From an uncultured bacterium (GTDB lineage Bacteria; Bacillota_I; Bacilli_A; RF39; UBA660), in contig CASFOW010000042.1 in the NCBI GenBank assembly GCA_949296705.1, positions 25,096 to 89,095 on the forward strand: a stretch of DNA of 64,000 nucleotides. Reading direction: 5' to 3'. The notes beneath the pieces were generated by a model. It searched no databases and was not told the DNA's origin. It was given only the letters and a program-made list of their open reading frames with translations. Position numbers and translations under genes: made by a program. Shown here piece after piece: positions 1 to 39,777 of the stretch (position 1 is the first letter of the stretch; the number at the start of each line of letters is the position of its first letter).

Positions 1-510
1 AGTTAAATTTCTAATTCCTAAGATGTAGGCTCCACCACTAGCGATATTATTAATTATCATTGTACTACCATCTGATGAACTAGGGACTGCTTGTTGCTGA
101 GTAAGATTGTTGCCGCCACTCGGACTACTATCTAACTGTTGTAAATGAGCGACGTCTCGATAAGTATTTGGATTATTTAATAGATAATTTACTCCATCTA
201 GATTAGTTGTGAAATTATAAATCCCCATTGAAATCATTTTAGATAGAAATTGAGGGGCTAAGCACTCAGGCGTATCAGGCAAAAGAATAATAATCTTTTC
301 CACATCTAAAGCCATAGACAGCTTTTGAAGATTTCTGATGTCATGATAGTCTTTCAATGCTGTTAAATCCAGAATCATTCTACCGAAGAAAAAATTACTA
401 AACATTTGAACTAATTCATCGGCATTAAATACCCCATGAATAGATTTGATTACTTCTATATCTAAATTGGCAAGCTCCGCTTGTCTTTCATTGGATATAA
501 TTACATTCAT
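1..510 (-). CDS. Partial CDS, running off the window start. Hypothetical protein with a receiver-like N-terminal region, possibly TadZ/CpaE-like.
   Basis: Minus-strand ORF starts at ATG 510 with RBS GGTGGTGAG 6 nt upstream and has no stop before position 1. It begins MNVIISNERQAELANLDIEVIKSIHGVFNADELVQMFS...EKIIILLPDTPE...GIYNF. The D/D/K spacing loosely resembles a degenerate receiver domain. No Walker A motif was seen in the available part. It is the last visible gene of the Tad-like operon. Confidence 0.3.
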   Translation of the reverse strand, partial: MNVIISNERQAELANLDIEVIKSIHGVFNADELVQMFSNFFFGRMILDLTALKDYHDIRNLQKLSMALDVEKIIILLPDTPECLAPQFLSKMISMGIYNFTTNLDGVNYLLNNPNTYRDVAHLQQLDSSPSGGNNLTQQQAVPSSSDGSTMIINNIASGGAYILGIRNLT

Positions 511-1921: not shown

Positions 1922-2707
1922 TTAAAGATTTGTAAACATGTAAATCATCGCTATTAGAATCAGAACCATAACACCAGCACCAGTCGCTACTAACATAACC
2001 ATAGTTTGTCCTTCCATATGCTCGATTCTTTCTTTGTATTTTTGATCTCTTGCCTTAGCTTGTAAATTAGATACTGTTCTAGAAAACATTAATAAACGTT
2101 CCTGTTTTCTTTCTTGGGAACCTAATCCTAAACGATATAGTAATCTCATCATTCTCATTGAATCACGAACTGGATACTGATTAGCAAAATCCATATAAGG
2201 CTGAATACTAGAATCGCCTGCATCAATTTTTGCAATCATTTCTCTAAGTCCTGGTTTAAATACATCCGGTGCTTCCGGAATTGATTTAGCTAGCGCAACT
2301 GGCACAGTATAGTGCTGTACTAAGATTTCTAATCCCTTTAAATAGTATGGCAACATGACATCAATTTCATGTAAGTGACGTTTATAGTATTTCTTTAAAT
2401 TTGTATATTCTATCTTATATACAAAGTAACCAACTAAAATCGATAACACAATATTAATTAATGATAATTCAGTTAAAAAAACAAAAAGAAAAATAACAAT
2501 AACTAAACCACCATTTTTTAATCGTTTGGCAAATATCTCATCTGGTGTTTTTTTATCCCCATAACGAGCAGCTACTAGAAACTCAAAATCATCTTCTTTT
2601 AATTTATCTAATAGCATCTTATTATCTTGAATAAACTTTTCACCATCAATATTTCGATTATATACTAAGATAAATACAAAAATTGCACCAACAATAAATA
2701 TTTCCAT
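1922..2707 (-). CDS. tadC: TadC-like pilus assembly membrane protein (T2SS-F domain)
   Basis: 261-aa polytopic membrane protein immediately downstream of a TadB-like gene with start/stop overlap at 2707. The order ATPase-TadB-TadC is canonical for Tad loci. Confidence 0.55.
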   Translation of the reverse strand: MEIFIVGAIFVFILVYNRNIDGEKFIQDNKMLLDKLKEDDFEFLVAARYGDKKTPDEIFAKRLKNGGLVIVIFLFVFLTELSLINIVLSILVGYFVYKIEYTNLKKYYKRHLHEIDVMLPYYLKGLEILVQHYTVPVALAKSIPEAPDVFKPGLREMIAKIDAGDSSIQPYMDFANQYPVRDSMRMMRLLYRLGLGSQERKQERLLMFSRTVSNLQAKARDQKYKERIEHMEGQTMVMLVATGAGVMVLILIAMIYMFTNL

Positions 2708-3600
2708 TATTCTTCACCCACATTCTCATTGTAAAACTTCTCACCCTTGAGTAGGAAGTAACTATTTACTAAGATAATACCGTGAAGAATTATCTTTACA
2801 AAGACATTATCTAACAATTGAATATAGGTATCTCTACCTAATAAATATTGAATTAGCATTACCATCAGATATAGCATAATTCCATATTTTAAGAATCCTT
2901 TATGAAAATTTGCTCTTTCCATACGGTCACGGTATACACTTTCTACTAGCATATCGATGTCTAGTTGCATGTTATCTAAAGATTCTCCAGAGTCTCTAGC
3001 TCCTTCTTTGGTAATTTGTAAAAATAATTGATGCATATTTTTAACAATATAATATGGATACTTGGTAGTCATAAATTCGATGGATTCATCGATAGATCCA
3101 TTCTGATAAGCTAGAGAAATCATTAAATCAACATCACTTAGTACAGGATCTTCTAAGACACCTGATGCAACAACACCTTCTAGAGCTTTTACGAAACTTT
3201 GTGTAGTTGCGAACTCCATAATTGTATTTGTCGTATAGATTTGAATTTGTTCAAAGATAAATTCGCTATAAACCCTTTTGCATCTTAGATAAGCAAGATA
3301 AGGAATCGTCATATCTAAGGCAATAATATAGATTACTGAAATCAATATATTATAGAAATATAGATAAGAAATAACTCCGGCAAAAATAGAAAAAGTTACT
3401 ACTTGAATCATATATTGTCTCGGAGTGTATTCTTGCCCTAAATCCTTTGTTTTCTGGCGAATAACTTTAAAGGAATACGGAGCAAAACGATTATACATGT
3501 TCGTTGCTTGTAACGTAATAAAGTGATAGACATTTTGTCCTTTATATTTACGGTAAAAAAGTATAAATAGCGCTATGGCTAATAGAATTAATAATTCCAC
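2707..3600 (-). CDS. tadB: TadB-like pilus assembly membrane protein (T2SS-F domain)
   Basis: 297-aa protein with N-terminal and C-terminal TM segments flanking a cytoplasmic helical domain. It directly follows the CpaF ATPase gene. Confidence 0.55.
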   Translation of the reverse strand: MELLILLAIALFILFYRKYKGQNVYHFITLQATNMYNRFAPYSFKVIRQKTKDLGQEYTPRQYMIQVVTFSIFAGVISYLYFYNILISVIYIIALDMTIPYLAYLRCKRVYSEFIFEQIQIYTTNTIMEFATTQSFVKALEGVVASGVLEDPVLSDVDLMISLAYQNGSIDESIEFMTTKYPYYIVKNMHQLFLQITKEGARDSGESLDNMQLDIDMLVESVYRDRMERANFHKGFLKYGIMLYLMVMLIQYLLGRDTYIQLLDNVFVKIILHGIILVNSYFLLKGEKFYNENVGEE

Positions 3601-3620: not shown

Positions 3621-5099
3621 TTAATTGTTGTTAAAATCCACGATGATTGGTTGAGTTTGATTCACTGTTGGATTTCCCCCTTGAGTTATACCACTACTAG
3701 TTGGTTGCAGTATAGCTTGTCCTAATGTCTGTGTTACTGGCTGTTGTTCGTGTGGTGGAGTTAAAGTTGTCGTTGAACTCTGGGAAGGAGTCGAAATCGG
3801 ATTAGGATTCGGTGTTGGAGCTACTGGTACATTGCCAACAGGATTAGAAACTGATGGTACTGGACTAGATACTGGTGTAATTGTTTCTTTTCTTTCCAAG
3901 GAAGCATTCACTGTCTCTGTTTGTTTGGATATATTATCTCCTGCGGTAGGAACTTTTACATTCTCTACCTTAGGAGATTCTAAATTTGTCGTTGGATTCT
4001 CCCCAATCACATCTTCCAATTTTATTCCCCCATCTTCTTCTTCCGCTCCTTCAAAAGTAGTTGATTCTAGTTCAACATTTTGTGCTAATAGTGAATCGAT
4101 CAAATGCTGACTAGGATTTTTCTTAATAATCTTTCCATTCATTAGTTTCTGATATAAAACATTGTAGACTGGTTTATTATTATCATCGATATAGAATTCC
4201 GTAATTTCATCAATTTCACGATGAAATTTTCCATATTTCTTACTATAGTAAGCTTTAATATGAACGCCTAATTGAACATAACGATAGATCGTACTTAAGA
4301 ATTGATCAACATCTAGTTCTGTTTCCATTAAAGAATACATACGATGTGGAATTGCACTTGCTTTATCTGAGTGGATTGTCGATAAAATATTATGTCCTGA
4401 AGAAATAGAGTTACGAACGGCACTTACAGCTTCGGCACTACGGACTTCTGACAAAAGAATCCATTTAGGGTTCTGTCTCATACAAGTAACTAATACATCA
4501 CTATAAGAAGCGATATTATTAGTTTTCATTGCGACAATATCACGATGTGGATAAATCTTATCTAAGTGTAATTCCAAGGTATCCTCAATCGTAATGATTT
4601 TTTCACTTTCTTTAGTATGGGATGCTAGATATTTGACAAATTCAGTTTTACCTGAACCTGTTTCTCCACAGACGATGATATTACAATGTCCATGAACGCA
4701 TTTAATTAAGAAATCATGAATATCTTTGGTTACATAATCTTCTTTTAATAACGTTTCTTCTTTTAATCGTATCTTAGCTGGTGTCTTACGAATAACTAAC
4801 GCAATTCCGTTAGTTGCAATTGATTCATGGACGAAATTCATACGTAACTCTGGACTTTCCGCATCAAGGAAAGGGCTAGCATTATTGAAAGTTGTCCCCA
4901 TAACGTTGGAACATTGAAAAGCTAACTTTTCTACTACACTATTATTAATGGCGGGATTTTCTACTCTAAGTGAACCTTGGGTTAAAGAACGAATCCAAAT
5001 TTGTCCATTATTCGTGTATGAGATATCGGTGATATCATCATTTTCGATATACTCTCTAAAAGCCCCAAAATCTAATTGTTCAAATAGGTTATCTTTCAT
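3621..5099 (-). CDS. cpaF: CpaF/TadA-family secretion ATPase with a C-terminal Pro/Thr/Ser-rich tail
   Basis: Walker A CGETGSGKTE and the family-typical segment VTCMRQNPKWILLSEVRSAEA, plus a His box. The core of about 350 aa is followed by about 130 aa of low complexity (PVSSPVPSVSNPVGNVPVAPTPNPNPISTPSQSSTTTLTPP...). Confidence 0.85.
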   Translation of the reverse strand: MKDNLFEQLDFGAFREYIENDDITDISYTNNGQIWIRSLTQGSLRVENPAINNSVVEKLAFQCSNVMGTTFNNASPFLDAESPELRMNFVHESIATNGIALVIRKTPAKIRLKEETLLKEDYVTKDIHDFLIKCVHGHCNIIVCGETGSGKTEFVKYLASHTKESEKIITIEDTLELHLDKIYPHRDIVAMKTNNIASYSDVLVTCMRQNPKWILLSEVRSAEAVSAVRNSISSGHNILSTIHSDKASAIPHRMYSLMETELDVDQFLSTIYRYVQLGVHIKAYYSKKYGKFHREIDEITEFYIDDNNKPVYNVLYQKLMNGKIIKKNPSQHLIDSLLAQNVELESTTFEGAEEEDGGIKLEDVIGENPTTNLESPKVENVKVPTAGDNISKQTETVNASLERKETITPVSSPVPSVSNPVGNVPVAPTPNPNPISTPSQSSTTTLTPPHEQQPVTQTLGQAILQPTSSGITQGGNPTVNQTQPIIVDFNNN

Positions 5100-5118: not shown

Positions 5119-5958
5119 TTACTCTGTTGGTAATGGTGCGGGATTTTCTAAATCCAAATCAGTAAACTCAGTTACTTCGTTAATAAAGTCACGTAATGTT
5201 TCACTAGCAATACTTACCTCACCTGGTTCTTCTTTTAGTGATTCATTCGTTGGTACTGGGATAATAGCAACTTCATAAGTACGTAAATATCCAGCCTTTC
5301 TTAATAGAATATGATATTCTTCTGGTAAAGCGAAGATAATTTGTGATGGTGTTTTAACGTTTTCTAAGTCTTCGAATACATCATCACCATTTGAATCTAA
5401 TACCGCAAGAATTTTTACATTCTTTAATAGTTTACCAACCATAATTTTATCTTCAGTATCTGCGGTAATATTTTCTTCATCTACTTTATTGGTTGCTTTA
5501 ATATAGATATCAATATAGTTTCCAGGATAGATCTTGTTACCATAAGTTGTTTCCGTTGTAACGGCTAAGTTCATTAAGACATAATCATCTGGATAGTCAT
5601 ATAGTATTGAATCTGGCAACTCTGATTGGGTAACTACTGCTCTTTGATAGAATAAGCTACCTTGTGGGATTGTGCAATCTGCATTAACATAGTAATTAAT
5701 AATTTTACTAGTGTCAGTAATAACATCTCCCTGTACCATAGCCATTGGTACATCCACGATACCAACCATATCGCTAGTAATTCTTGTTCTAGAAGAAATA
5801 TCTACTAAGGCGTAAGGTACACTAGTTGGATTGGTTTTTTGACTAATTCTGTAATTGTAGAAAAAATACAAGACGACAATTGCGATAACAGTCAAGATTA
5901 TCGTAACTGTATTTTTGTTTGTTAAGAACTTCTTTACTCTGGTTCCTACTCCATTCAT
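5119..5958 (-). CDS. cpaB: CpaB/RcpC-like Flp pilus assembly protein
   Basis: N-terminal TM anchor (TVTIILTVIAIVVLYFFY) followed by a region resembling a SAF domain (ALVDISSRTRITSDMVGIVDVPMAMVQGDVI). It sits immediately upstream of cpaF, as in Tad loci. Confidence 0.55.
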   Translation of the reverse strand: MNGVGTRVKKFLTNKNTVTIILTVIAIVVLYFFYNYRISQKTNPTSVPYALVDISSRTRITSDMVGIVDVPMAMVQGDVITDTSKIINYYVNADCTIPQGSLFYQRAVVTQSELPDSILYDYPDDYVLMNLAVTTETTYGNKIYPGNYIDIYIKATNKVDEENITADTEDKIMVGKLLKNVKILAVLDSNGDDVFEDLENVKTPSQIIFALPEEYHILLRKAGYLRTYEVAIIPVPTNESLKEEPGEVSIASETLRDFINEVTEFTDLDLENPAPLPTE

Positions 5959-5970
5959 TATTTTCCCCTC

Positions 5971-6399
5971 CTACTCAACTTCTTCAATCTTTCTTTTTTC
6001 ATTATATTTTGTTTCTAATATACCATCAATCGTCGTTACGATATCGAAATCTTCGCCAACAAAAGAGGCAACTGTTGTCGTTCCTACTTGGATACTTGCT
6101 TTTGGTGGTGTTTCATTGAAGTCAATAATCTTGATTCGATAGGTAGAAGATGCAGAAACGCTGTCTGCAAATCTTCTAATAAAACTCTCTAAGAATTTTT
6201 CTCTATCTACTCGTATAATTCCACCGGATGTACGATAATATCCCCAATCGACGCCGTCAATCATTGCTGCTTCAGTTGTTTCTTTCAATAAGTAATAATC
6301 TAATTCGTTACCCGATTGATAGTTTTGAATTAAATTTACACAGGCTAGAGTTAATACTCCTAAGATTATAATTCCTGTAATGATCATTCCTTTACTCAT
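5971..6399 (-). CDS. Small membrane-anchored protein, possible minor pilin/pseudopilin
   Basis: 142 aa, N-terminus MSKG/MIITGIIILGVLTLA with one hydrophobic helix then a soluble domain. Context is between the cysteine-rich protein and cpaB. Confidence 0.35.
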   Translation of the reverse strand: MSKGMIITGIIILGVLTLACVNLIQNYQSGNELDYYLLKETTEAAMIDGVDWGYYRTSGGIIRVDREKFLESFIRRFADSVSASSTYRIKIIDFNETPPKASIQVGTTTVASFVGEDFDIVTTIDGILETKYNEKRKIEEVE

Positions 6400-6411: not shown

Positions 6412-9402
6412 TTAATCATCGTCACAATCGCCACCGTAGGCATTGTTGCATATGGCAATTTGTTTTCGTGACTGCGCATTATAACCACTTGTATAAGTAA
6501 CATTTCCTGTGTCGTCTAAGAAATTACTTGTACATACTTCACGACCACCTATCGTTGAACAACTCATATCATAGTCCAGATAATTTGTATATCCATCGCC
6601 GTTAAAGTCTCCTACATTCTTGTTGTACTGTCGTATTCGCATGATTTGTTCTGTCGTCAGGATGATGTCGTAATCTACTTCATTTGTATCACTATAGATT
6701 TCATTTCCCTTATATTCGATATCTTCAGTTAACTCAATTGGGTTGATCTTATATCCTAATAGATTATAGATTCGACTATCGGTTGGGATTGCTCCATTTG
6801 TCCAATTCCAACGTGGATTTCTATCATTAGGGAAGACATCGACTAAATCAATCGGTCTATAGATAAAGGTTATTCCAGAATAATCAATCGGTGGTGTATC
6901 TCCGCCAGGGCAATCTGGTCCTGTACAAGTCTCTGGACAATTTGGCCCGGTACATGGCTGATCACAATCTGGGCAATTAGATCCATCTACTTGGGTTGGA
7001 TCATCTGGGTCAATGAATAAATTATTATATACTCCATAGAAGCAATTGATTTGATCACTATAGTCACGAGTTCCAATTCCATTTACATTAACAGTTATAG
7101 TTGCTTTTTTATTGCCCTGACTGAAATATTGGTCATAGCCAATTAAACTAACTCTCTGATTATAATCTAGTGGGATGGATACATTTGTATTTCTGCTCTT
7201 TGGATCCGTATAGTATCTTCTTCCGCCAGCATAGAATTTCTTAGCATCAAAATTAATATTGCCTAAACGTCCGGTATTGGCATCAAATGCTTCATAGCCT
7301 CTGCCCGCTTTGTAAGCAGCTAGACCGGTTGTTTTATTTACATAAGCTTCTGGTAGTTGTAAATCTACTGTTATGGATTTTTCGTTTTTCGTACAGTAAC
7401 TTACTGTTATATTGAATGGAGTAGGTGAATCTCCTAATTGTACTGTTCTTGTACCACCTGGACAGCTTACACCACTATGACTTACATTTTCAATAATATC
7501 GGCATCATTTGAACTTACTGTATAAGTATAAGCCTGATTACCTTTCTTTAAATAAGAATCTGAAATATTAATCGTGTAAGTACCTGTCTTTTGTTGTTCT
7601 TCAGCGATGGATTTAAAGTTCACATATTCATTATTTGAGGCAATCAATTGATTACCGTATAACTCATCTGGATTATCTACACATCCTGCAGGACCTACTG
7701 TTTCAGTAATTGTGCAGATTCCATTATGATTATCACAATATGTTGAGAATGTCATTCCAACATCACCACAGTGTTCAGTATGTACACTACAGGTATACAT
7801 TCCTTTATAATTACCTGCACCGTCTACTGAATCATGACTGAAGCTGCAGCGACTATCCGAGGTAGAAGTAATTACATCGATAATACTCGTCCCAGTTCTT
7901 TCAATAGAATGCTCAAGAAATGTAGTTGGACGTTCTAGTTTGGCATCTAAAAGAGATAAATCTCTAGGGTTATTTTTGCCATACACTGTATTGTAGCAAG
8001 AATTAATACAACTTTGTGTATATTTACCACCATCACACGAATTTACGCAAGCGTCAAAATCGTCATTTGGACCGCTAGTAGGATCTTCACCAGGATCGTC
8101 ACCTTTAGTGACACGACCGCTTCTTTCATCATAGCTGCAGACTGTGTGACAACTGTAAACGCATTTAGGTTTCTTAATAACTTGTTGTTTATGAACTATT
8201 GAACATTGCCTTGTTGCTTGAAATGTTCCTCCATAAGTGAATCCTGCTCCTGCATAGACGAGTTTAGCTCCAACTGGATAAATGTCATATTTTTCCCAAC
8301 AGGTAAGTCCCCAATAGGTACCCGATTGACTATAGACTATTTGATATCCTTGGTGTCGTTCTGTATTACATTGAAAACCATTGCTCGTATCAAGAATTGA
8401 ATATCCATCCTCTGGAGCACTTCCAACTAAGGCTTGCAGATTTTGATAAGCTTTTTGAATATCTTCTCTTAATGTCAGATATTGACTGTAAGTAATTTTA
8501 TCTTCATAACAAACTCCTGCATAGTTAAGTTTTAAAGAGGAAATTAAAGTTTGCAAGTAAGCAGGGTCTGGGGAATAAACTACTTTGCTATCTACTAGAT
8601 ATTGAATATAATCTTCTATTGTTTTACACCCGTAAGAATTATTTGTATCCCTAGAAGTGACTGCTGGGTTATCAAGATTAATACTATCTGCGGTATTGAT
8701 AACGACTTCTACGCTTGCAATATAAGTATTATTACAAGGTGAAGAAGGATCATCAATATAATATTCTAAAGTTATTTTATTGACATCAATCGAACCGGTT
8801 GCAGCATTATATTTTGAAGGTTCAAGATTTCTCAATACATAATAGTTCCCTTCTTTTGACAAAAAATTGCTGTAATCAGTTGAAAATTGTGAAGTGGTAT
8901 TTTTTTCTTCGCCTGGGGCTACATACCGTATCTTTGCGGTGCCACCAAATAAATCTTTTATCTTAAGGGTAATTAAACCATTCGATAAATTTAATTCCAT
9001 TTCAATATTTTTGTATTGATTGGTTTCATCATCAACAGCTAGCACATTATTTAATTCGTATCTTTTATCTTCAGCTGTTGTAGGACAAGTCTGAATACTA
9101 CCATAACTATCTGTATAGCAATTATATCCCTTTTCTACCACATTAAGTTTATATGGCGTTAAATCAGTCGTACCGACTGGATAAGTAACATAACCACTCA
9201 TTATCGCCGCTTCATCGATTTTATCGAGGGTTACGGCAGTTGATACACTTGGATCCCAACTTACTTGGTAGTATCGCTTGTTGGAAAGACAAAAGTTTTT
9301 ATTTTGTAATCCTGTAGCTGCTTCTGTTTTTTGTGGTAATAAAATCACGCAGATTACAATCAAGAAAAAGAAAAGTATTTTTGATTTTCTCATTATGTTC
9401 AC
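6412..9402 (-). CDS. Large secreted cysteine-rich protein (996 aa), candidate pilus-associated adhesin
   Basis: Sec-type signal peptide MNIMRKSKILFFFLIVICVILLPQKTEA/A. Many cysteines, including the cluster NCPDCDQPCTGPNCPETCTGPDCPGG at nt ~6900-7000. No LPxTG-like sorting signal at the C-terminus (ends ...GGDCDDD). Confidence 0.7.
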   Translation of the reverse strand: MNIMRKSKILFFFLIVICVILLPQKTEAATGLQNKNFCLSNKRYYQVSWDPSVSTAVTLDKIDEAAIMSGYVTYPVGTTDLTPYKLNVVEKGYNCYTDSYGSIQTCPTTAEDKRYELNNVLAVDDETNQYKNIEMELNLSNGLITLKIKDLFGGTAKIRYVAPGEEKNTTSQFSTDYSNFLSKEGNYYVLRNLEPSKYNAATGSIDVNKITLEYYIDDPSSPCNNTYIASVEVVINTADSINLDNPAVTSRDTNNSYGCKTIEDYIQYLVDSKVVYSPDPAYLQTLISSLKLNYAGVCYEDKITYSQYLTLREDIQKAYQNLQALVGSAPEDGYSILDTSNGFQCNTERHQGYQIVYSQSGTYWGLTCWEKYDIYPVGAKLVYAGAGFTYGGTFQATRQCSIVHKQQVIKKPKCVYSCHTVCSYDERSGRVTKGDDPGEDPTSGPNDDFDACVNSCDGGKYTQSCINSCYNTVYGKNNPRDLSLLDAKLERPTTFLEHSIERTGTSIIDVITSTSDSRCSFSHDSVDGAGNYKGMYTCSVHTEHCGDVGMTFSTYCDNHNGICTITETVGPAGCVDNPDELYGNQLIASNNEYVNFKSIAEEQQKTGTYTINISDSYLKKGNQAYTYTVSSNDADIIENVSHSGVSCPGGTRTVQLGDSPTPFNITVSYCTKNEKSITVDLQLPEAYVNKTTGLAAYKAGRGYEAFDANTGRLGNINFDAKKFYAGGRRYYTDPKSRNTNVSIPLDYNQRVSLIGYDQYFSQGNKKATITVNVNGIGTRDYSDQINCFYGVYNNLFIDPDDPTQVDGSNCPDCDQPCTGPNCPETCTGPDCPGGDTPPIDYSGITFIYRPIDLVDVFPNDRNPRWNWTNGAIPTDSRIYNLLGYKINPIELTEDIEYKGNEIYSDTNEVDYDIILTTEQIMRIRQYNKNVGDFNGDGYTNYLDYDMSCSTIGGREVCTSNFLDDTGNVTYTSGYNAQSRKQIAICNNAYGGDCDDD

Positions 9403-9459: not shown

Positions 9460-10263
9460 TTATCCAATTTCTGATGCAGCACCTTCTGCTAACATGTTAA
9501 AGTTTTTACTTTTCGTTACCTTATACTTCTCAATTTCTTCGTCATCTCTCACTTTACGTGCATCGATTACAAATTGTTGTTTCTCAAAAGCGCCAAAATA
9601 TCTAGTACATGTTTTAACAGCAATCAATTCATCATTTTCATTTACATCAATATCATAATCATAGATTGAATTATCGCGCACACTAGCAATATAATCTTTG
9701 ATTTGTTCAGGATTACTCATGCTTCTGTCATTATCTCCTGCATAATCATAGAATCCAATCGCATAAATTTTATAAAGTTCTTCTTTTCCTTCTTTGGTAT
9801 AACTGATATACAAATTATCCTGCGCAAAATCATAATAGGTAAAAGCCATCAAGCCTTCAAAATAATTTAACATGCTCATATCACGAATCGGTGTACTGGA
9901 CACATTAATAATATTATGACCATGTATAACTTCTCTAGTTTCATCGGTATCGTATTCCGAGCTACGCCACGCATAATCAGATATACCATCATCACCATAA
10001 TCAAAGCTATTCAAAACCGCCATATCAATGTTTGTACCTTGTACTTGAATCCAACCAACAGTATAAAAATCTTCATATTTAAATTCTAGGGAATCCTGAG
10101 TTCGATCTTTAAAATTCAAAGTGATACTTGTATCAAACTTACTACCCGTTATACTGAAATAAATAATGGCTATAATTAATACGATAATAACCAAAATGCT
10201 TATTGTAATTAACATTCTCTTTTTTAGATCTAGTCTCTTGTTTTTTGACTTTCTCTTTCTCAT
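9460..10263 (-). CDS. srtB: Class B sortase-family transpeptidase
   Basis: N-terminal signal-anchor. Sequence FYTVGWIQVQGTNIDMAVLNS matches SrtB DIVGWIKLSGTSLNYPVLQG. His motif VIHGHN, Cys motif LIAVKTCTRY (TLxTC-like) and Arg motif FVIDARKV give the His/Cys/Arg catalytic triad in the canonical order. Confidence 0.7.
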   Translation of the reverse strand: MRKRKSKNKRLDLKKRMLITISILVIIVLIIAIIYFSITGSKFDTSITLNFKDRTQDSLEFKYEDFYTVGWIQVQGTNIDMAVLNSFDYGDDGISDYAWRSSEYDTDETREVIHGHNIINVSSTPIRDMSMLNYFEGLMAFTYYDFAQDNLYISYTKEGKEELYKIYAIGFYDYAGDNDRSMSNPEQIKDYIASVRDNSIYDYDIDVNENDELIAVKTCTRYFGAFEKQQFVIDARKVRDDEEIEKYKVTKSKNFNMLAEGAASEIG

Positions 10264-10278
10264 TAGTTATCACTTCCT

Positions 10279-12120
10279 TTACTGCAATAAATATGGATCG
10301 TTCATTGTACCTTTTCCTGATCTTATTTTTAAATTGCCATTCACATGCATCACTACTTTAACTGAAAATTCAGGGAAATTATCATTTGTTAATTCAAATG
10401 ACATTCCTGTTACTACATTCATCATGATTACCATATTTTCTCCTGTAGAACGATCTAAGAATAGTTGAATACGTTGTCCACTATAAGGACTACCACTTAC
10501 ACTAGCAAACAAATCAATCGTTGATGCCAACATCAGTTTTGCTTCTACTTTTTCTGTTTCTAAATCATTATATTTCGTGCTAGGACTATTTGTAATAATC
10601 TCATATTCATAAGGAATAATATTACTGTCATCTAAGTATTCAATATAATCTTCATTAAGTATGTATCCTGGATTATTTTCATCAGTTAAGTTATATTGAT
10701 AATTTGGAATATCAGAAGTAGAGACAGTTAGAACTCTGTTATCACTAATATTTAGTAGCGGATGAGCGCCGATTACTTTAACACTACCGTCTTTCTCTTG
10801 ACCAATAATTCTAAATAATTGTCCTGAATAAGAAATATATTCACCAACCAACCTGTTTTTTATTTCCTCGTGTTCTTCTCCGTACTGATAATCATTTAAT
10901 TTATAAGGATTTTCTTTCGTTCCATCCCCTTCATAAATATAAAGACCATTTTTTATCGTAATGACCGGCTTAATTGGCAAAATATTCAAATTGCTCGTTA
11001 GACTAGCAGTTCTACGCTCAGTAATTATTAAATTTTCATTCTCACGCTTATTGGCAAGCAAATAATAATAATTATTCCAATAATTCATCGAACTGTAACT
11101 ATTTTCTACTGTCTTATAGTATTCGTCTAGGCTAGGTAATCCCACTTTAGCCGTTACTGTCTCACTACAGCTACTATTAATATCATCTACACTATTTACT
11201 GCGCCAACACAATAGGTAGTATCGACTAAATATTTATCTGGATTTGTTAAACTATTGTAGAAAACATTATTTAACCAAGCTTCGACATTAGAATCCTTAT
11301 ATCCAGTACTATCATATCTAAGATTACTGACGACATCTTCACTGATTAATTTTACGTTACCATTTTCATCAACATTGATAATACGCCATAACATACCAGA
11401 AAATTGAACATAGTTGTCTTCTACTTGTCCTTTATAGTAATTGCTTTCATCGGTTTCACTAGCTACTGTTTCTGAAAAATTTCTAGCTACTGTTACCGTT
11501 CTCGTCACTTTGGTTTGATTATGAGTACTATCTTTTACTTTATAGATTACTTCATAACTACCTACTTTACTAGTATCTACTTTACTGGTATCCACAGTTA
11601 CCTTAGAAATATCTATCTCTCCATCTACATTATCAATAACTTTTTTAACCCCTGGATCTTCATAAGTACTATTGTGGCTAATGATCATATTTTCTTCGCC
11701 ATTTAACTCGATTTTTGGTCCTTCGTGGTCGATATCGGATTCATATTTGCCACATTTTAGATAAGTATAATACTGATATTCTCCATCTTCGGTTTGTACT
11801 ACTCTAACCCAGCTTGAAGTATCACATAATTTTTTGGTCTTAGGTACATATAGAGCCTCTACTCTATTTTCTAAAAACATCTTTTCTAGTGAGATTTCTC
11901 TACTTTCTCCCTTACCTGGTAATAATTCTTGACGATACTCATAGTAACGTTTAACCGCATCTAGGAAAATTTGTTCTTCTTGTTTGAAAATTTCAATTTT
12001 TGATAGCCAGAATACCCATAGAAGATATCCAAGCAGGAATAAGAATAAACTAAGCGCAATCAATATTCCTACCGCTTTTAAGTATTTATTTCTTAGAAAC
12101 CAAGCTTTTACTTTTTCCAT
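10279..12120 (-). CDS. Signal-anchored large extracytoplasmic protein (613 aa), function unknown
   Basis: N-terminal TM segment AVGILIALSLFLFLLGYLLWVFWL followed by about 560 aa of predicted extracellular sequence. No recognisable catalytic motifs. Second gene of the operon. Confidence 0.6.
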   Translation of the reverse strand: MEKVKAWFLRNKYLKAVGILIALSLFLFLLGYLLWVFWLSKIEIFKQEEQIFLDAVKRYYEYRQELLPGKGESREISLEKMFLENRVEALYVPKTKKLCDTSSWVRVVQTEDGEYQYYTYLKCGKYESDIDHEGPKIELNGEENMIISHNSTYEDPGVKKVIDNVDGEIDISKVTVDTSKVDTSKVGSYEVIYKVKDSTHNQTKVTRTVTVARNFSETVASETDESNYYKGQVEDNYVQFSGMLWRIINVDENGNVKLISEDVVSNLRYDSTGYKDSNVEAWLNNVFYNSLTNPDKYLVDTTYCVGAVNSVDDINSSCSETVTAKVGLPSLDEYYKTVENSYSSMNYWNNYYYLLANKRENENLIITERRTASLTSNLNILPIKPVITIKNGLYIYEGDGTKENPYKLNDYQYGEEHEEIKNRLVGEYISYSGQLFRIIGQEKDGSVKVIGAHPLLNISDNRVLTVSTSDIPNYQYNLTDENNPGYILNEDYIEYLDDSNIIPYEYEIITNSPSTKYNDLETEKVEAKLMLASTIDLFASVSGSPYSGQRIQLFLDRSTGENMVIMMNVVTGMSFELTNDNFPEFSVKVVMHVNGNLKIRSGKGTMNDPYLLQ

Positions 12121-12123
12121 AAT

Positions 12124-13683
12124 CTATTCTCCTTTTAATTGATAAAAATATTGATAAGTTCTAACTGTAAAGTATAGTTCTATATTAGTCGCATTTACCA
12201 TCTCACTAGGTGCTGCGATAAATAAATGATCTCCACGATAATTCGTTAGTAGATAAGAAATATTCATCTCTTTTGTCTCTCCATTTATGGTATAGCGTAT
12301 CTTTCCATAAGTTTTTAAAAAATCGAGAAAATCCTTTTTGCTTCCTTCTTTTAATTTATATTTTGCGTAGAAAATCACTTGATTTTCTTTACTTTCTAGG
12401 GTCGCCTCATAGATAGGACAAGTTTTAGCATTACATTGTTCATAACGATAATCCATCGCATTCGTTAACGCAAAATTAGATAGGCTAAATGTCCATTCTT
12501 TCTCTAAATTGATAGGAACAGTTAACTCTTCGCCGAGAGAGACATTGGCTTTTTCAATAAATTTACTGATATCTCTTACCTGAACCCGAATTCTTTTGGC
12601 GGCATCATTAAATTTACCAGTTCGATAAGTTAATAAAAAGTTACTGTTTTCTTTTGGGGCATCAATCTCAAAAACAAATAAAATATTTTCACTACTAGAA
12701 GCTTTAATTTTCTTACCACTACTATAAAGCGTACCAATATCATTAAAATATAAATTGAATCTTTCAGAAGGGGTATACTGTTGATTATCTATATATAAGA
12801 AGAAATATTCATTACTGATTGGAACATCACTAGTTTGATCATTGGTAATTTTTACATCCAAGATAAAATAGTATTTACTTTTTGCAATTTGATTTCCGGT
12901 ATAATCACGATTAGTGATATAGGCATTCTCTATTTGGAATTTAAGTCCATTTGCGGATACTGCTTCTCCCATACTGTATACTTTATTGACTACAAAAGCA
13001 TAGTGATAGACATTAAATGAAGCTAATAACACAACCAAAACAATTAAAATACTAATACTAAACTTGTGTTCTAAAAAGGTATATTTTATATAACGAAGAT
13101 TTCTTCTAAAGGCTCTAATATAACGATCTTTATCAAAAGTAATCTCTACTTCTACTTCTTCACGATCTTCGTCGTTAATTTCTGCGAATTCTTTGTCTTC
13201 TCCAAATCCAAATCTCTTTAAGTCTAGACCTATGGAACGGATAAGTAATAATAAAATAGCTGGATAATAGGGAATAGTGACAATAAAAGATAAATCTCGA
13301 ATCGTTAACGCAGATACTAAATCAAACTCCTGTGTTACCGTTATCGTAAAGTAATAATAATGATAAATAAAGAAGGCTAACGTGATAATTGATACACCTA
13401 AGATAAATACATAGGAAATAAATGGTTTATCCTTATATTTTAGTAAATAAGCTAAGATTGCGGAAATAATAGTAATCAGTACAATAGCGCCAATAGAAAA
13501 AATATTTACATAGTTACTTATGGAATCTAATTGACTACTATAAATACCGGTTGCGATATAATCTTTTATGAATTGATATAATTCTAATTCTTTCCATAAA
13601 ACAAAAATAACTAGAGCGAGTAAGACTATATTGATTTTCTTAAAGTTACGAATTAAAAAGGCATATGGCTTTCTTAGAATCAC
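12124..13683 (-). CDS. Polytopic membrane protein with a large C-terminal extracytoplasmic domain (519 aa), function unknown
   Basis: GTG start with RBS AGGAGGGG. About 4 TM helices at the N-terminus, an acidic cytoplasmic loop (EINDEDREEVEVE), a further TM, then a soluble domain of about 300 aa. First gene of the operon. Confidence 0.6.
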   Translation of the reverse strand: MILRKPYAFLIRNFKKINIVLLALVIFVLWKELELYQFIKDYIATGIYSSQLDSISNYVNIFSIGAIVLITIISAILAYLLKYKDKPFISYVFILGVSIITLAFFIYHYYYFTITVTQEFDLVSALTIRDLSFIVTIPYYPAILLLLIRSIGLDLKRFGFGEDKEFAEINDEDREEVEVEITFDKDRYIRAFRRNLRYIKYTFLEHKFSISILIVLVVLLASFNVYHYAFVVNKVYSMGEAVSANGLKFQIENAYITNRDYTGNQIAKSKYYFILDVKITNDQTSDVPISNEYFFLYIDNQQYTPSERFNLYFNDIGTLYSSGKKIKASSSENILFVFEIDAPKENSNFLLTYRTGKFNDAAKRIRVQVRDISKFIEKANVSLGEELTVPINLEKEWTFSLSNFALTNAMDYRYEQCNAKTCPIYEATLESKENQVIFYAKYKLKEGSKKDFLDFLKTYGKIRYTINGETKEMNISYLLTNYRGDHLFIAAPSEMVNATNIELYFTVRTYQYFYQLKGE

Positions 13684-13795
13684 GTTTTTCCCCTCCTACT
13701 CTTCTATTCTTTTTCATTATAACCTATTTTGAATAAAAATAAAAGATTTTTTCCGCGCTTTGTGATATACTTTTTAATTATGAGAGGTAGATGTT
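13684..13795. promoter_or_regulatory. Divergent promoter region between the Tad-like operon (minus) and the thioredoxin-like lipoprotein gene (plus)
   Basis: Plus strand carries an extended -10 TGaTATACT about 30 nt upstream of ATG 13796 with RBS GAGAGGT. Minus strand carries TTTTAT-N17-TATAAT upstream of RBS AGGAGGGG and the GTG start at 13683. Confidence 0.45.
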
Positions 13796-14269
13796 ATGAA
13801 AAAATTTAGTTTTATTATTATCTTAGTTGCTCTTTTATTGGTTAGTGGGTGTTCTAAGAGTTATTTAAAAGAAATTTCTTATGATGAATACAAAAAACTA
13901 TTAGAAGATGAGGAAACTTTTATTTTGGAGGTAATGAGTGATGATTGTACGGCTTGTAAAGATTTTCGTCCGAAATTAAAAGATGTTGCTTCTAGTTACA
14001 AAATTGAAGTAAAGTATATCAATATTGATAAGTTAACTGCTGATCAATACGATGAACTTGCTGTTTCAGCAACGCCTACTGTGATTTTTTATATAGATGG
14101 TGAAGAGGAAACAACAGCCGCAAGAATTGTTGGATCAGTAAAAAGAGAAAAGATTATTTCTAAGTTTAAGGCTAGTGGGTTTATTGAAGATGAGGCTTCA
14201 GATCAATCTAATGAAAAAGATAACTCTGTTGAACAAGACGAGCAACAAGAGAAAAACACTTCAAAATAA
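13796..14269 (+). CDS. Thioredoxin-fold lipoprotein with a CxxC motif
   Basis: Lipobox LLVSGC. CTAC (CxxC) motif in DDCTACKDF, with a Trx-like fold pattern (ATPTVIFYIDGEE). Acidic C-terminal tail. Divergently transcribed from the Tad-like operon. Confidence 0.7.
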   Translation: MKKFSFIIILVALLLVSGCSKSYLKEISYDEYKKLLEDEETFILEVMSDDCTACKDFRPKLKDVASSYKIEVKYINIDKLTADQYDELAVSATPTVIFYIDGEEETTAARIVGSVKREKIISKFKASGFIEDEASDQSNEKDNSVEQDEQQEKNTSK

Positions 14270-14295
14270 AAAAGTAGGATTTCCTACTTAGTTTT
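14268..14295. terminator. Bidirectional rho-independent terminator
   Basis: Hairpin AGTAGGA-TT-TCCTACT, T-run on plus strand (TAGTTTT) and A-run upstream. It lies between convergent genes. Confidence 0.55.
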
Positions 14296-24349: not shown

Positions 24350-24425
24350 TGGCGCCTGATGTAGGACTCGGACCTACGACCTATCGGTTAACAGCCGAGT
24401 GCTCTACCAACTGAGCTAATCAGGC
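24350..24425 (-). tRNA. tRNA-Asn (GTT)
   Basis: Acceptor GCCTGAT/ATCAGGC, D-arm GCTCAGTTGGTAGAGC, anticodon loop CTGTTAA, encoded CCA. One mismatch at the top of the anticodon stem. Confidence 0.8.
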
Positions 24426-37268: not shown

Positions 37269-37344
37269 TGGTGCCGACTATAGGGATCGAACCTACGACC
37301 TACGCGTTACGAGTGCGTTGCTCTACCAGCTGAGCTAAGTCGGC
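37269..37344 (-). tRNA. tRNA-Thr (CGT)
   Basis: GCCGACTTAGCTCAGCTGGTAGAGC..., anticodon loop CTCGTAA, T-loop GGTTCGATCC, encoded CCA. One A-C mismatch at 31-39. Confidence 0.85.
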
Positions 37345-39701: not shown

Positions 39702-39777
39702 GGGCTGTTAGCTCAGTTGGTAGAGCAACTGACTCTTAATCAGTGGGTCTAGGGTTCGAATCCCTAACAGCCCACCA
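39702..39777 (+). tRNA. tRNA-Lys (CTT)
   Basis: GGGCTGTTAGCTCAGTTGGTAGAGC..., anticodon loop CTCTTAA, T-loop GGTTCGAATCC, encoded CCA. Confidence 0.9.

Follow-up and report, generated by a model that had tools for sequence, protein, structure and literature searches.

Two coupled envelope proteins at the head of a Tad-like and type IV secretion operon in uncultured gut Bacilli: a proposed membrane adaptor and a proposed surface-ligand binder

The window analysed here is a 64,000-nucleotide (nt) stretch of DNA from an uncultured bacterium (contig CASFOW010000042.1, positions 25,096 to 89,095). One operon on its minus strand is headed by two genes, g1 and g2, which encode large envelope proteins of 519 and 613 amino acids (aa), respectively. 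In the open reading frame (ORF) reading, g1 spans positions 12124–13683 and g2 spans 10279–12120, both on the minus strand. The GTG start codon of g1 is located 6 nt 3′ of a strong ribosome-binding site (RBS), AGGAGGGG; 3 nt (ATT) separate its TAG stop codon from the ATG of g2, whose own RBS (GGAG) is located within the 3′ end of g1. The spacing between g2 and the third gene, g3 (9460–10263), is 15 nt. The divergent intergenic region 5′ of g1 (13684–13795, minus strand) is 112 nt in length and contains one TATAAT box in addition to the RBS. The immediate upstream neighbour (13796–14269) is located on the plus strand, therefore g1 heads the transcription unit; the preceding minus-strand gene is closed by a minus-strand terminator-like hairpin at 14289–14272. 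Save for one at chance level within g9, no minus-strand terminator-like site was found from the intergenic region to g12; no credible internal terminator was seen in the operon, and the g1/g2 and g2/g3 junctions are tight (3 and 15 nt). An earlier reading of this DNA, made from the letters alone (the sequence-only reading), had placed both ORFs at the head of an operon, and the ORF, RBS and promoter-region readings confirmed that they are real and lie there. That reading gave gaps of 4 and 15 bp: the 15 nt is correct, whereas the 4 bp is a coordinate difference and the actual spacer is 3 nt.

The g1 protein was modelled by AlphaFold with a predicted local distance difference test score (pLDDT) of 82 and a predicted template-modelling score (pTM) of 0.60. 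Hydropathy and the model both place five hydrophobic helices, at residues ~17–35, 61–83, 88–112, 126–151 and 208–232. The positive charges are concentrated at the N-terminus, the KYKDKP loop and the 152–207 loop; by the positive-inside rule the protein is N-in/C-out, with a 287-aa ectodomain (residues 233–519). The earlier description of g1 as a polytopic protein with an extracytoplasmic domain of about 300 aa is borne out by these five transmembrane (TM) helices and the ectodomain. Residues 1–16 (13636–13683, minus strand, as are all g1 and g2 segments below) form a cytoplasmic N-terminal peptide, MILRKPYAFLIxxFxK, which is the most conserved segment of g1. Residues 17–151 (13231–13635) form a four-helix TM bundle, and the cytoplasmic loop between TM2 and TM3 contains invariant K84, K86, P87 and Y91. 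The second and larger cytoplasmic loop, residues 152–207 (13063–13230), contains one invariant G-x-D/N-L/I-K-x-F-x-F motif, an acidic run (EDREEVEVE) and an amphipathic helix; in the model, residues 157–183 are predicted to be disordered. Residues 208–519 (12127–13062) comprise TM5 and two β-sandwiches of the DUF4352/MPT63 type, the second of which contains the invariant pair C417–C422.

The sequence-only reading had recognised no motif in g1, a view that the two DUF4352/MPT63-like β-sandwiches of the ectodomain overturn. The window protein scored 24.5 bits against PF11611 (DUF4352; E=3.6e-5), just below the cut-off of 25.9 bits, and PF11611 was matched by 37 of the 46 g1 family members (best E 3.7e-7). 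In the fold search, the β-sandwich of the ectodomain superposed on solved DUF4352/MPT63-like members. The profile search of g1 against the PDB gave only a chance-level match (E=0.1), no catalytic or chaperone motif was found by the family and profile searches, and no plasmid homologue of g1 was found. The g1 family has 1074 cluster representatives at 50% identity, nearly all of them full length (505–552 aa), as seen among the best 150 of the 1074.

Conservation is distributed very unevenly along g1. The mean pairwise identity is 82% for residues 1–16 and 54% for the large cytoplasmic loop, compared to 26–39% for the TM and ectodomain regions (33–39% for the ectodomains). When the window protein was aligned with homologues down to 25% identity, about 24 of the 32 invariant residues were cytoplasmic or juxtamembrane. 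On the cytoplasmic face, M1, R4, K5, P6, A8, I11 and F14 are invariant at the N-terminus, and R149, G152, F158, F160, D163, D173, E175, E176, E178, R197, Y201 and E205 around the large loop. The constraint on g1 sits on its cytoplasmic face, and this location of the invariant residues suggests an adaptor or relay to motor ATPases.

Unlike g1, the g2 protein (AlphaFold pLDDT 91, pTM 0.74) has a single N-terminal anchor (residues ~19–40), with the rest of the protein outside; in its predicted topology it is the signal-anchored extracellular protein that the sequence-only reading had described. Residues 1–132 (11725–12120) contain a Lys-rich leader, the TM anchor and a small α/β domain with the invariant pair C99–C123; one long N-terminal helix (residues 12–62) spans the TM segment and its extension in the model. 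The α/β domain is followed by one immunoglobulin-like (Ig-like) domain of the Bact_surface_Ig-like/DUF5011 type (residues 133–214, 11479–11724) and by two tandem DUF6273 domains with C-type-lectin-like fold (residues 215–613, 10282–11478). Both DUF6273 domains are ~200 aa in size and terminate in SGxGTxxxPYxL. These domains had also escaped the sequence-only reading; both families are above their Pfam thresholds. Residues 137–211 matched PF16403 (DUF5011) with 64.7 bits (cut-off 27, E=8e-18), and the Ig domain matched ZmpB Ig modules at 8.5e-10 in the PDB profile search. Residues ~225–613 matched DUF6273 (PF19789) in two stretches at E=1.5e-9, and the C-lectin-like fold was also found. With an Ig spacer followed by two C-type-lectin-like heads, the architecture of g2 is that of an adhesin or receptor-binding protein. 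We found 485 homologues of g2, some of which are named 'DUF5011 domain-containing protein' in their source records. The membrane-proximal α/β and Ig domains share 49–51% mean identity (49% for the α/β domain), compared to 35% for the distal lectin-like heads; the faster evolution of the distal domains suggests surface-ligand binding.

The helix of residues 12–62, packed on a small β-sheet with the C99–C123 disulfide, resembles a pilin in layout, and modular pilins exist in monoderm type IV pili (T4P). The g2 protein might then be a non-canonical modular type IV pilin carrying its lectin heads at the tip or along the fibre. However, no conserved Gly-1, Glu+5 or cleavage motif was found at the N-terminus in 47 aligned sequences, where the leader is also variable in length; the structure search did not recover a pilin fold at the N-terminus, hhalign comparison of g2 to the operon's own pilin-like proteins was negative, and no prepilin peptidase was found in the locus. 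Together these findings make a pilin very unlikely. Matches of g2 to plasmids and phages occur through the Ig domain only, and no close phage homologue was seen. We also considered g2 as the target of a diversity-generating retroelement (DGR); no template/variable-type repeat was found within the window, and the candidate was rejected. In one divergent locus (L151:16003–17106) there is a 367-aa g2-like protein, consisting of a TM anchor and one DUF6273 domain that ends in SGSGTEEDPYVIE, among multiple T4SS_pilin-like genes; its position links lectin-like modules to the type IV secretion system (T4SS) part of the operon, described below, as well.

Synteny was read from 80 retrieved species loci and from a metagenome scan anchored on g8, from which loci of at least 15 kb were used (n=34); the loci inspected were the best-scoring ones of each scan. 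A relative of g1 is encoded by 456 species genomes. Throughout the 80 species loci, g2 is located directly 3′ of g1, and on contigs of sufficient length the order sortase (g3), g4, DUF5411 (g5), CpaB (g6), ATPase (g7), g8, g9 is kept even where g1 identity falls to 29%. Of the 34 metagenome loci, 26 are colinear over the entire stretch from g1 to VirB4. The two genes are thus conserved, co-oriented and tightly coupled with the apparatus genes, as the sequence-only reading had claimed, and the co-occurrence with the ATPase locus in relatives for which it had called is seen within this clade. The core of the operon is far more conserved than its head: the mean pairwise identity is 74% for g8 and 71% for the ATPase, and homologues of g8 and g9 are 61–99% identical to the window proteins (16–20 sequences sampled), whereas those of g1 and g2 are 30–55% identical to the window proteins and g4 is conserved in patches only. 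The ratio of non-synonymous to synonymous substitution rates (dN/dS) was 0.06 for g1 and 0.06–0.095 for g2 against two close relatives, which indicates purifying selection, and 0.015–0.03 for the core genes g5 and g8, with dS near saturation for some genes in the comparison. The housekeeping genes that flank the locus in the window (sigma factor, U32 peptidase, PedC-like, SpoU and thioredoxin genes) recur beside it on one JGI contig whose g2 is only 40% identical. Since this flank is shared and g1 has no plasmid homologue, the locus appears to be chromosomal and vertically inherited.

The loci differ mainly in what accompanies g1. The g2–g4 pair is duplicated in L022 and on the JGI contig L086/L087, where the order is g1, g2, sortase, g4, g2′, g4′; in L072 a second g2–g4 pair is located upstream of g1, L071 contains a partial second g2-like match, and L056 carries a second sortase–g4–DUF5411 (g3–g4–g5) set. 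Unlike g2, g3 and g4, g1 was never seen duplicated in the loci inspected. In one divergent group (L143, L151, L153 and L158), g1 is retained with an intact MILRKPYAF N-terminus (MLFRKPFAF in L143), and g2 and the sortase are replaced by one ~220-aa protein with a signal peptide, 4–5 Cys and a C-terminal TM segment. This alternative operon head is located at L143:2913–6697, L151:3105–7409, L153:4338–7627, L158:3874–7268, L162:138–3991 and L163:2769–6325. The ~220-aa protein was tried as a homologue of g2 or g3 and rejected, as no homology was found. It is followed by a g4-like Cys-rich protein of 870–1205 aa, which has only the C-terminal ~150 aa in common with g4. In L159 and L163 none of g1, g2 and g3 is found at the operon head; in L084 a g1-like gene is relocated 3′ of VirD4, and in L068 g2 is present without the sortase. 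According to the sequence-only reading, absence of the two proteins from otherwise syntenic loci would speak against their part in the apparatus. This holds partly for g2, which is replaced or missing in some loci; g1 is far more widely retained and is absent at two operon heads. Taken together, g1 is a near-core component, whereas g2 is an exchangeable accessory.

The distribution of constraint and loss also bears on the proposal of the sequence-only reading that the two proteins are structural or anchoring parts of the apparatus, for example a wall-spanning conduit that replaces the diderm secretin and TadD. Membership of the locus was borne out; a structural, wall-spanning conduit was not. 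For g1 and/or g2 to oligomerise into such a conduit or collar, with the pilus or substrate passing through it, would fit with the extracytoplasmic location of both proteins at the head of the operon and with the fact that monoderm systems have no secretin yet must cross peptidoglycan. The stacked domains of g2 (helix extension, α/β, Ig and two lectin-like domains) could, by our estimate, span a thin wall, and DUF4352 has been reported to drive oligomerisation of mycobacterial Mpr (PMC12596739). However, the sequence and fold searches of g1 and g2 found no secretin, tetratricopeptide repeat (TPR), β-barrel or ring-forming domain. The constraint on g1 is cytoplasmic and its ectodomains are among its least constrained parts, while g2 is adhesin-like and is replaced, missing or duplicated in syntenic loci, which fits poorly with an essential channel subunit. 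Moreover, the operon already has a CpaB-like protein and a wall hydrolase (see below), the usual means of wall crossing. Compared to RcpA/CpaC and TadD/CpaO of diderm Tad systems, g1 and g2 are alike only as extracytoplasmic products of a locus with a CpaF-type ATPase and a CpaB-like gene; they have no secretin, TPR or lipoprotein feature, and their pattern of conservation, loss and duplication is unlike that of a channel. We therefore regard the conduit as unlikely.

The third gene, g3 (9460–10263, minus strand), encodes an N-terminally anchored sortase-like transpeptidase. Its matches to TIGR03064 srtB (1.9e-8) and Pfam Sortase (0.16) are below the cut-offs; its catalytic set, H116, T218-C219-T220-R221 and R236, is conserved at 95% or more in 76 sequences. 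The C-termini of g1, g2 and g4 are soluble sequence in which no hydrophobic segment was found, unlike those of sortase substrates. This wall-active sortase adjoins g2, and it is conceivable that the two, perhaps with the help of the g1 ectodomain, bind wall glycopolymers or peptidoglycan of the producing cell and so position the machine. The lectin-like heads of g2 could take a wall ligand. A wall is present, since Ddl, a Mur ligase and a PASTA kinase are encoded in the window, and g1 showed a marginal match (E=0.0047) to the WxL-interacting peptidoglycan-binding domain (WxLIP). This match was present in only 1 of the 46 g1 family members, however, and in L068 g2 does without the sortase. The heads also evolve faster than any other part of g2, and some lineages have duplicated the gene; both features are more typical of a variable external ligand. 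Binding to the cell's own wall is accordingly doubtful.

The fourth gene, g4 (6412–9402, minus strand), encodes a secreted Cys-rich protein of 996 aa with a cleavable signal peptide and no family match. It is the fastest-evolving gene of the locus: across distant loci only a Cys-rich motif at residues ~438–490 (DFDACVNSCDGGKYTQSCINSCYN) and the C-terminal ~150 aa are conserved, and the rest turns over rapidly. The DUF5411 protein g5 (5971–6399, minus strand; Pfam E=4e-46) carries a hydrophobic segment at its N-terminus. With g5 the invariant core begins, and the gene was found in all syntenic loci, even in the variants without g1–g3. g6 (5119–5958, minus strand) encodes a CpaB/RcpC-like protein (TIGR03177 6e-8, Pfam RcpC 1.7e-5, both under the curated cut-offs).

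g7 (3621–5099, minus strand) encodes a secretion ATPase of the CpaF/FlaI/VirB11 group (Pfam T2SSE 1.2e-26, 93.7 bits). In the PDB search it matched FlaI, CpaF and VirB11 about equally well, at values near 1e-17 (CpaF 1.1e-17). The C-terminal residues ~345–492 of g7 (3621–4070, minus strand) form a long low-complexity tail rich in Pro, Thr, Ser, Gln and Asn, which is unusual for CpaF/VirB11-type ATPases; the homologues are 425–548 aa in size, and the length of the tail appears to vary among relatives. g8 and g9 (1922–3600, minus strand) are polytopic and lie in the TadB/TadC position, a label that comes from position, size and topology only. Many of their residues are invariant, and the two rank with the best-conserved proteins of the locus. 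Neither protein matched any Pfam, NCBIfam or PDB profile, that of the T2SSF platform included, and in the hhalign comparison of g8 with g9 only a weak N-terminal match was obtained (41% probability). They may belong to a very divergent or new family of platform proteins. In three metagenome loci (L091, L092 and L094) there are insertions of ~1.5–3 kb between g9 and the Flp-like gene. That gene, g10, encodes a 67-aa Flp-like small pilin; it is followed by g11 and g12, which encode pseudopilin-like paralogues of 173 aa (535–1858 for g10–g12, minus strand; no family match). A common MKEAxG(G) leader precedes a hydrophobic segment in all three, a pattern that suggests a class III signal peptide. 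The conserved leader of g10 reads MKEATG/ELN, and the EY motif of Flp is absent. The window edge cuts g13 (1–510, minus strand), of which only the 5′ part is seen; the protein is 335 aa in L081, has no family match, and corresponds to TadZ by place only. Of the 'pilus genes' named as neighbours in the sequence-only reading, the ATPase is therefore clear and CpaB weak, whereas the 'TadB/C' proteins have no Pfam, NCBIfam or PDB match.

The operon continues past the left edge of the window, as seen in L081 (L081:10547–20522), whose g12 is identical to that of the window. In L081, g12 is followed by the 335-aa protein in the TadZ position, one T4SS_pilin protein (4e-5) and one Cys-rich protein with a T4SS_pilin-like tail. 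Further genes encode a VirB6/TrbL-like protein of families known from integrative and conjugative elements (ICEs) of Mycoplasma (MMCAP2_0566/Mbov_0396/TrbL_4) and a 112-aa protein in the VirB3 position, which is labelled VirB3-like by size and position without a family match. Next come a split VirB4 and a SpoIID plus NlpC/P60 wall hydrolase; across contigs, SpoIID is accompanied by NlpC/P60 or CHAP. VirB4 matched VirB4_plasma (NF045975) at 7e-101, and its split into 183 and 595 aa keeps the score under the equivalog cut-off. The two overlapping ORFs encode the N-terminal, TraC-like part (183 aa) and the ATPase part (595 aa), respectively (L081:15622–17957); the same split occurs in L084 and L085, and its presence in three different contigs makes it look like a conserved feature rather than a sequencing error. 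VirB4 is 80–98% identical among the homologues listed. L084 and L085 add a protein of 227–239 aa and the VirD4 coupling protein (T4SS-DNA_transf, TrwB_AAD_bind); 3′ of VirD4 there are housekeeping genes such as BipA in L085, and further genes, including one for a TraF-like thioredoxin, in L084.

The predicted gene content of L081, L084 and L085 (VirB2-, VirB6- and VirB3-like proteins, VirB4, a wall hydrolase and VirD4) is that of a monoderm T4SS of the MPF-FATA/Mollicutes-ICE type, and the machine is a tight adherence (Tad)-like module fused to this T4SS, with about 22 genes in roughly 26 kb. By its sequence, g7 qualifies as the ATPase of a Tad (type IVc) system; with a full monoderm-type T4SS further along the operon, the machine is more than a Tad pilus. 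In two loci, Pfam searches of the genes within 10 kb past VirB4, some of them without any match, yielded neither a relaxase nor an integrase; a relaxase might be encoded elsewhere in the genome. An origin as a mobile element (ICE) was considered and rejected: no relaxase or integrase was seen near the locus, g1 has no plasmid homologue, and the housekeeping flank is shared with the JGI contig.

Divergent from g1, the gene g0 (13796–14269, plus strand) encodes a thioredoxin-like lipoprotein with a lipobox (Pfam Thioredoxin 1.4e-11, TraF 4.2e-5), and it adjoins g1 in about half of the species loci. The TraF/thioredoxin gene that lies 3′ of VirD4 in L084 is located at L084:17101–17637. Judging from its sequence, g0 probably handles the disulfides of Cys-containing extracellular components; seen alongside the numerous invariant Cys pairs of g1, g2, g4 and g15, it suggests a dedicated extracellular disulfide catalyst for the machine. 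The adjacency of g1 to g0, upstream of Cys-rich secreted proteins, might also mean that g1 is an assembly factor or membrane chaperone for these proteins. Alternatively, it might be an exclusion or immunity protein against self-targeting. Conjugation operons often open with exclusion genes, and the DUF4352-containing Mpr acts in phage exclusion. However, exclusion proteins are usually small and highly variable, whereas the cytoplasmic motifs of g1 are invariant down to 25% identity; the locus shows no mobile-element sign that would require exclusion, and the lack of any catalytic or chaperone motif in g1 argues against a chaperone. We consider both roles quite improbable.

The closest named relatives of the organism are metagenome-assembled genomes, namely Candidatus (Allo)scybalousia intestinigallinarum, uncultured Bacilli or Tenericutes, and Mycoplasma sp. 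CAG:877, which we take to belong to an RF39-type gut lineage. Elsewhere in the window, the repeat finder returned three mutually similar stretches of ~55–70 nt that resemble segments of tRNA genes (24350–24419, 37269–37338 and 39708–39763).

We propose that g1 and g2 are parts of one vertically inherited envelope machine, in which g1 is an adaptor or relay and g2, with g4, is a binder of surface ligands; we give this reading a probability of about 0.5. As proposed, g1 would be a membrane adaptor or signal relay between the conserved cytoplasmic machinery and the variable extracellular parts. Its cytoplasmic face, consisting of the RKPYAF peptide, the KxKP loop and the GxDLKxFxF-acidic loop, would dock on a highly conserved cytoplasmic partner, for example the ATPase(s) or the TadZ-position protein, and its two fast-evolving β-sandwich ectodomains would extend into the wall zone toward the surface components. 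g1 would thus act like VirB10 or like a coupling protein of the PilN/O type, being homologous to neither. g2 would be a membrane-anchored stalk tipped by two C-type-lectin-like heads; the heads would recognise a surface ligand, be it of a target cell, of the host or of the producer's own wall, and g2 would probably act together with the secreted Cys-rich g4.

Several points weigh against this proposal. No LPXTG-type sorting signal, and no other sign of a sortase substrate, was seen in any protein of the operon, and no prepilin peptidase was recognised among the operon genes examined. The Tad identity of g8, g9 and the pilins comes from position and pattern only. For g1, the helical bundle gave generic fold matches only, the global confidence of the model is moderate (pTM 0.60) with its key loop disordered, and neither sequence nor fold searches linked the protein to VirB10, PilN/O or GspL/M. 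In some lineages the core system does without g2. C-type-lectin-like folds are also found in enzymes, so that ligand binding by g2 is plausible and the ligand could be the cell's own wall. The domain content, topology, synteny, pattern of conservation and operon composition are read directly here; both roles and the binding partners we infer from sequence, predicted structure and comparative genomics.

As functional analogues of g1 we propose VirB10, PilN/PilO and GspL/GspM, proteins of the inner membrane in which a conserved cytoplasmic segment contacts the motor and the extracytoplasmic domain is β-rich. Different from all of them, g1 has five TM helices and two DUF4352 β-sandwiches. Among DUF4352/MPT63-like proteins, YjhA and YcdA of Bacillus subtilis, MPT63 of Mycobacterium tuberculosis and mycobacterial Mpr, for which nuclease and NTPase activities have been claimed, are lipoproteins, secreted or single-pass proteins, and none has the four-helix bundle or the cytoplasmic motifs of g1. 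In phage receptor-binding 'tentaclins', DUF6273 forms the head and has a lectin fold; two papers also describe a DUF6273, C-type-lectin-like domain, related to the C-terminal domain of Lcl (Lcl-CTD), as the N-terminal domain of the T. ramosa IgA peptidase. In contrast to the phage tentaclins, the DGR targets and this peptidase, g2 has a membrane anchor and is encoded within a secretion operon.

The likeness to PrgA, PrgB and PrgC of pCF10 lies in concept (PMC12857230): surface binding proteins are encoded 5′ of the T4SS genes in one operon, with Ig-like stalks, lectin- or polymer-binding heads and an association with sortase. Unlike the Prg proteins, g2 has an N-terminal membrane anchor, no LPXTG, no polymer-adhesin domain and DUF6273 heads, and the g1–g2 locus is chromosomal and vertically inherited, whereas pCF10 is a plasmid. 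According to the same review (PMC12857230), Gram-positive T4SSs have no known pilus and use surface adhesins for contact; they have no VirB10, so an unidentified component must fill a VirB10-like relay role, and wall crossing and contact sensing are described as unresolved. Hybrid T4SS–T4P assemblies are mentioned in that review, and another paper mentions the same for R64 and Ups/Ced. In the thin pilus of IncI R64 with its PilV adhesins, in Ups/Ced of Sulfolobales and in the T4P and T4SS of Patescibacteria, a filament and a VirB4/VirD4 machine cooperate and the adhesins are variable. Patescibacteria encode both the T4P and the T4SS on the chromosome and need the T4SS to grow as epibionts. Different from these systems, both modules are located here in one single operon of walled Bacilli, and g1–g5 have no counterpart there. 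In Roseburia, Ruminococcus and Eubacterium, a CpaF-PilC/GspF-DUF5411 operon has been predicted to be 'secretion-related' (Miller et al. 2022, PMC9523054); it, too, is uncharacterised and, in Gram-positive gut bacteria, brings DUF5411 and a CpaF-type ATPase together. The passages of that paper that describe it give 8–9 genes and mention no g1, g2, sortase or T4SS module, and our comparison is with this description. This operon of Clostridia is the nearest published item to the present locus (PMC9523054).

Within the literature library that we searched, there was no description of this system, of g1 or of g2, and nothing relevant on pili, T4SS or conjugation of RF39. The apparent novelty lies in the g1 family, marked by its cytoplasmic signature, and in the Tad-like/T4SS hybrid within one single operon of walled gut Bacilli; the domains themselves are of known kinds. 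A bolder interpretation goes further than the adaptor and ligand-binder roles proposed above. In this interpretation, which is speculative and which we hold to be rather unlikely, g1 is the missing VirB10-like coupling or relay subunit of monoderm T4SSs and of type IV filament machines, the operon from g1 to VirD4 encodes a chromosomally fixed, contact-dependent organelle of pilus and T4SS on which these bacteria depend, and g2 and g4 form an exchangeable cassette for partner specificity. If it were true, the organelle could serve the acquisition of DNA or nutrients, or the attachment to partner cells or the host, as with the essential T4SS of epibiotic Patescibacteria.

As for the proposed adaptor and surface-ligand binder, the short invariant cytoplasmic signature makes g1 a concrete and testable candidate for the coupling component of Gram-positive T4SSs. 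If the proposed roles are wrong, both proteins would still be builds of known surface domains in a T4SS/Tad hybrid, and not parts of a plain Tad pilus. The locus unites a Tad-like filament module, a complete monoderm T4SS and conserved head proteins in one operon, and it does so in hundreds of uncultured gut species. The g2/g4 pair gives a handle on the attachment targets of never-cultured bacteria with a wide distribution in human and animal guts, and so extremely conserved a contact machine may be central to the lifestyle of these bacteria.

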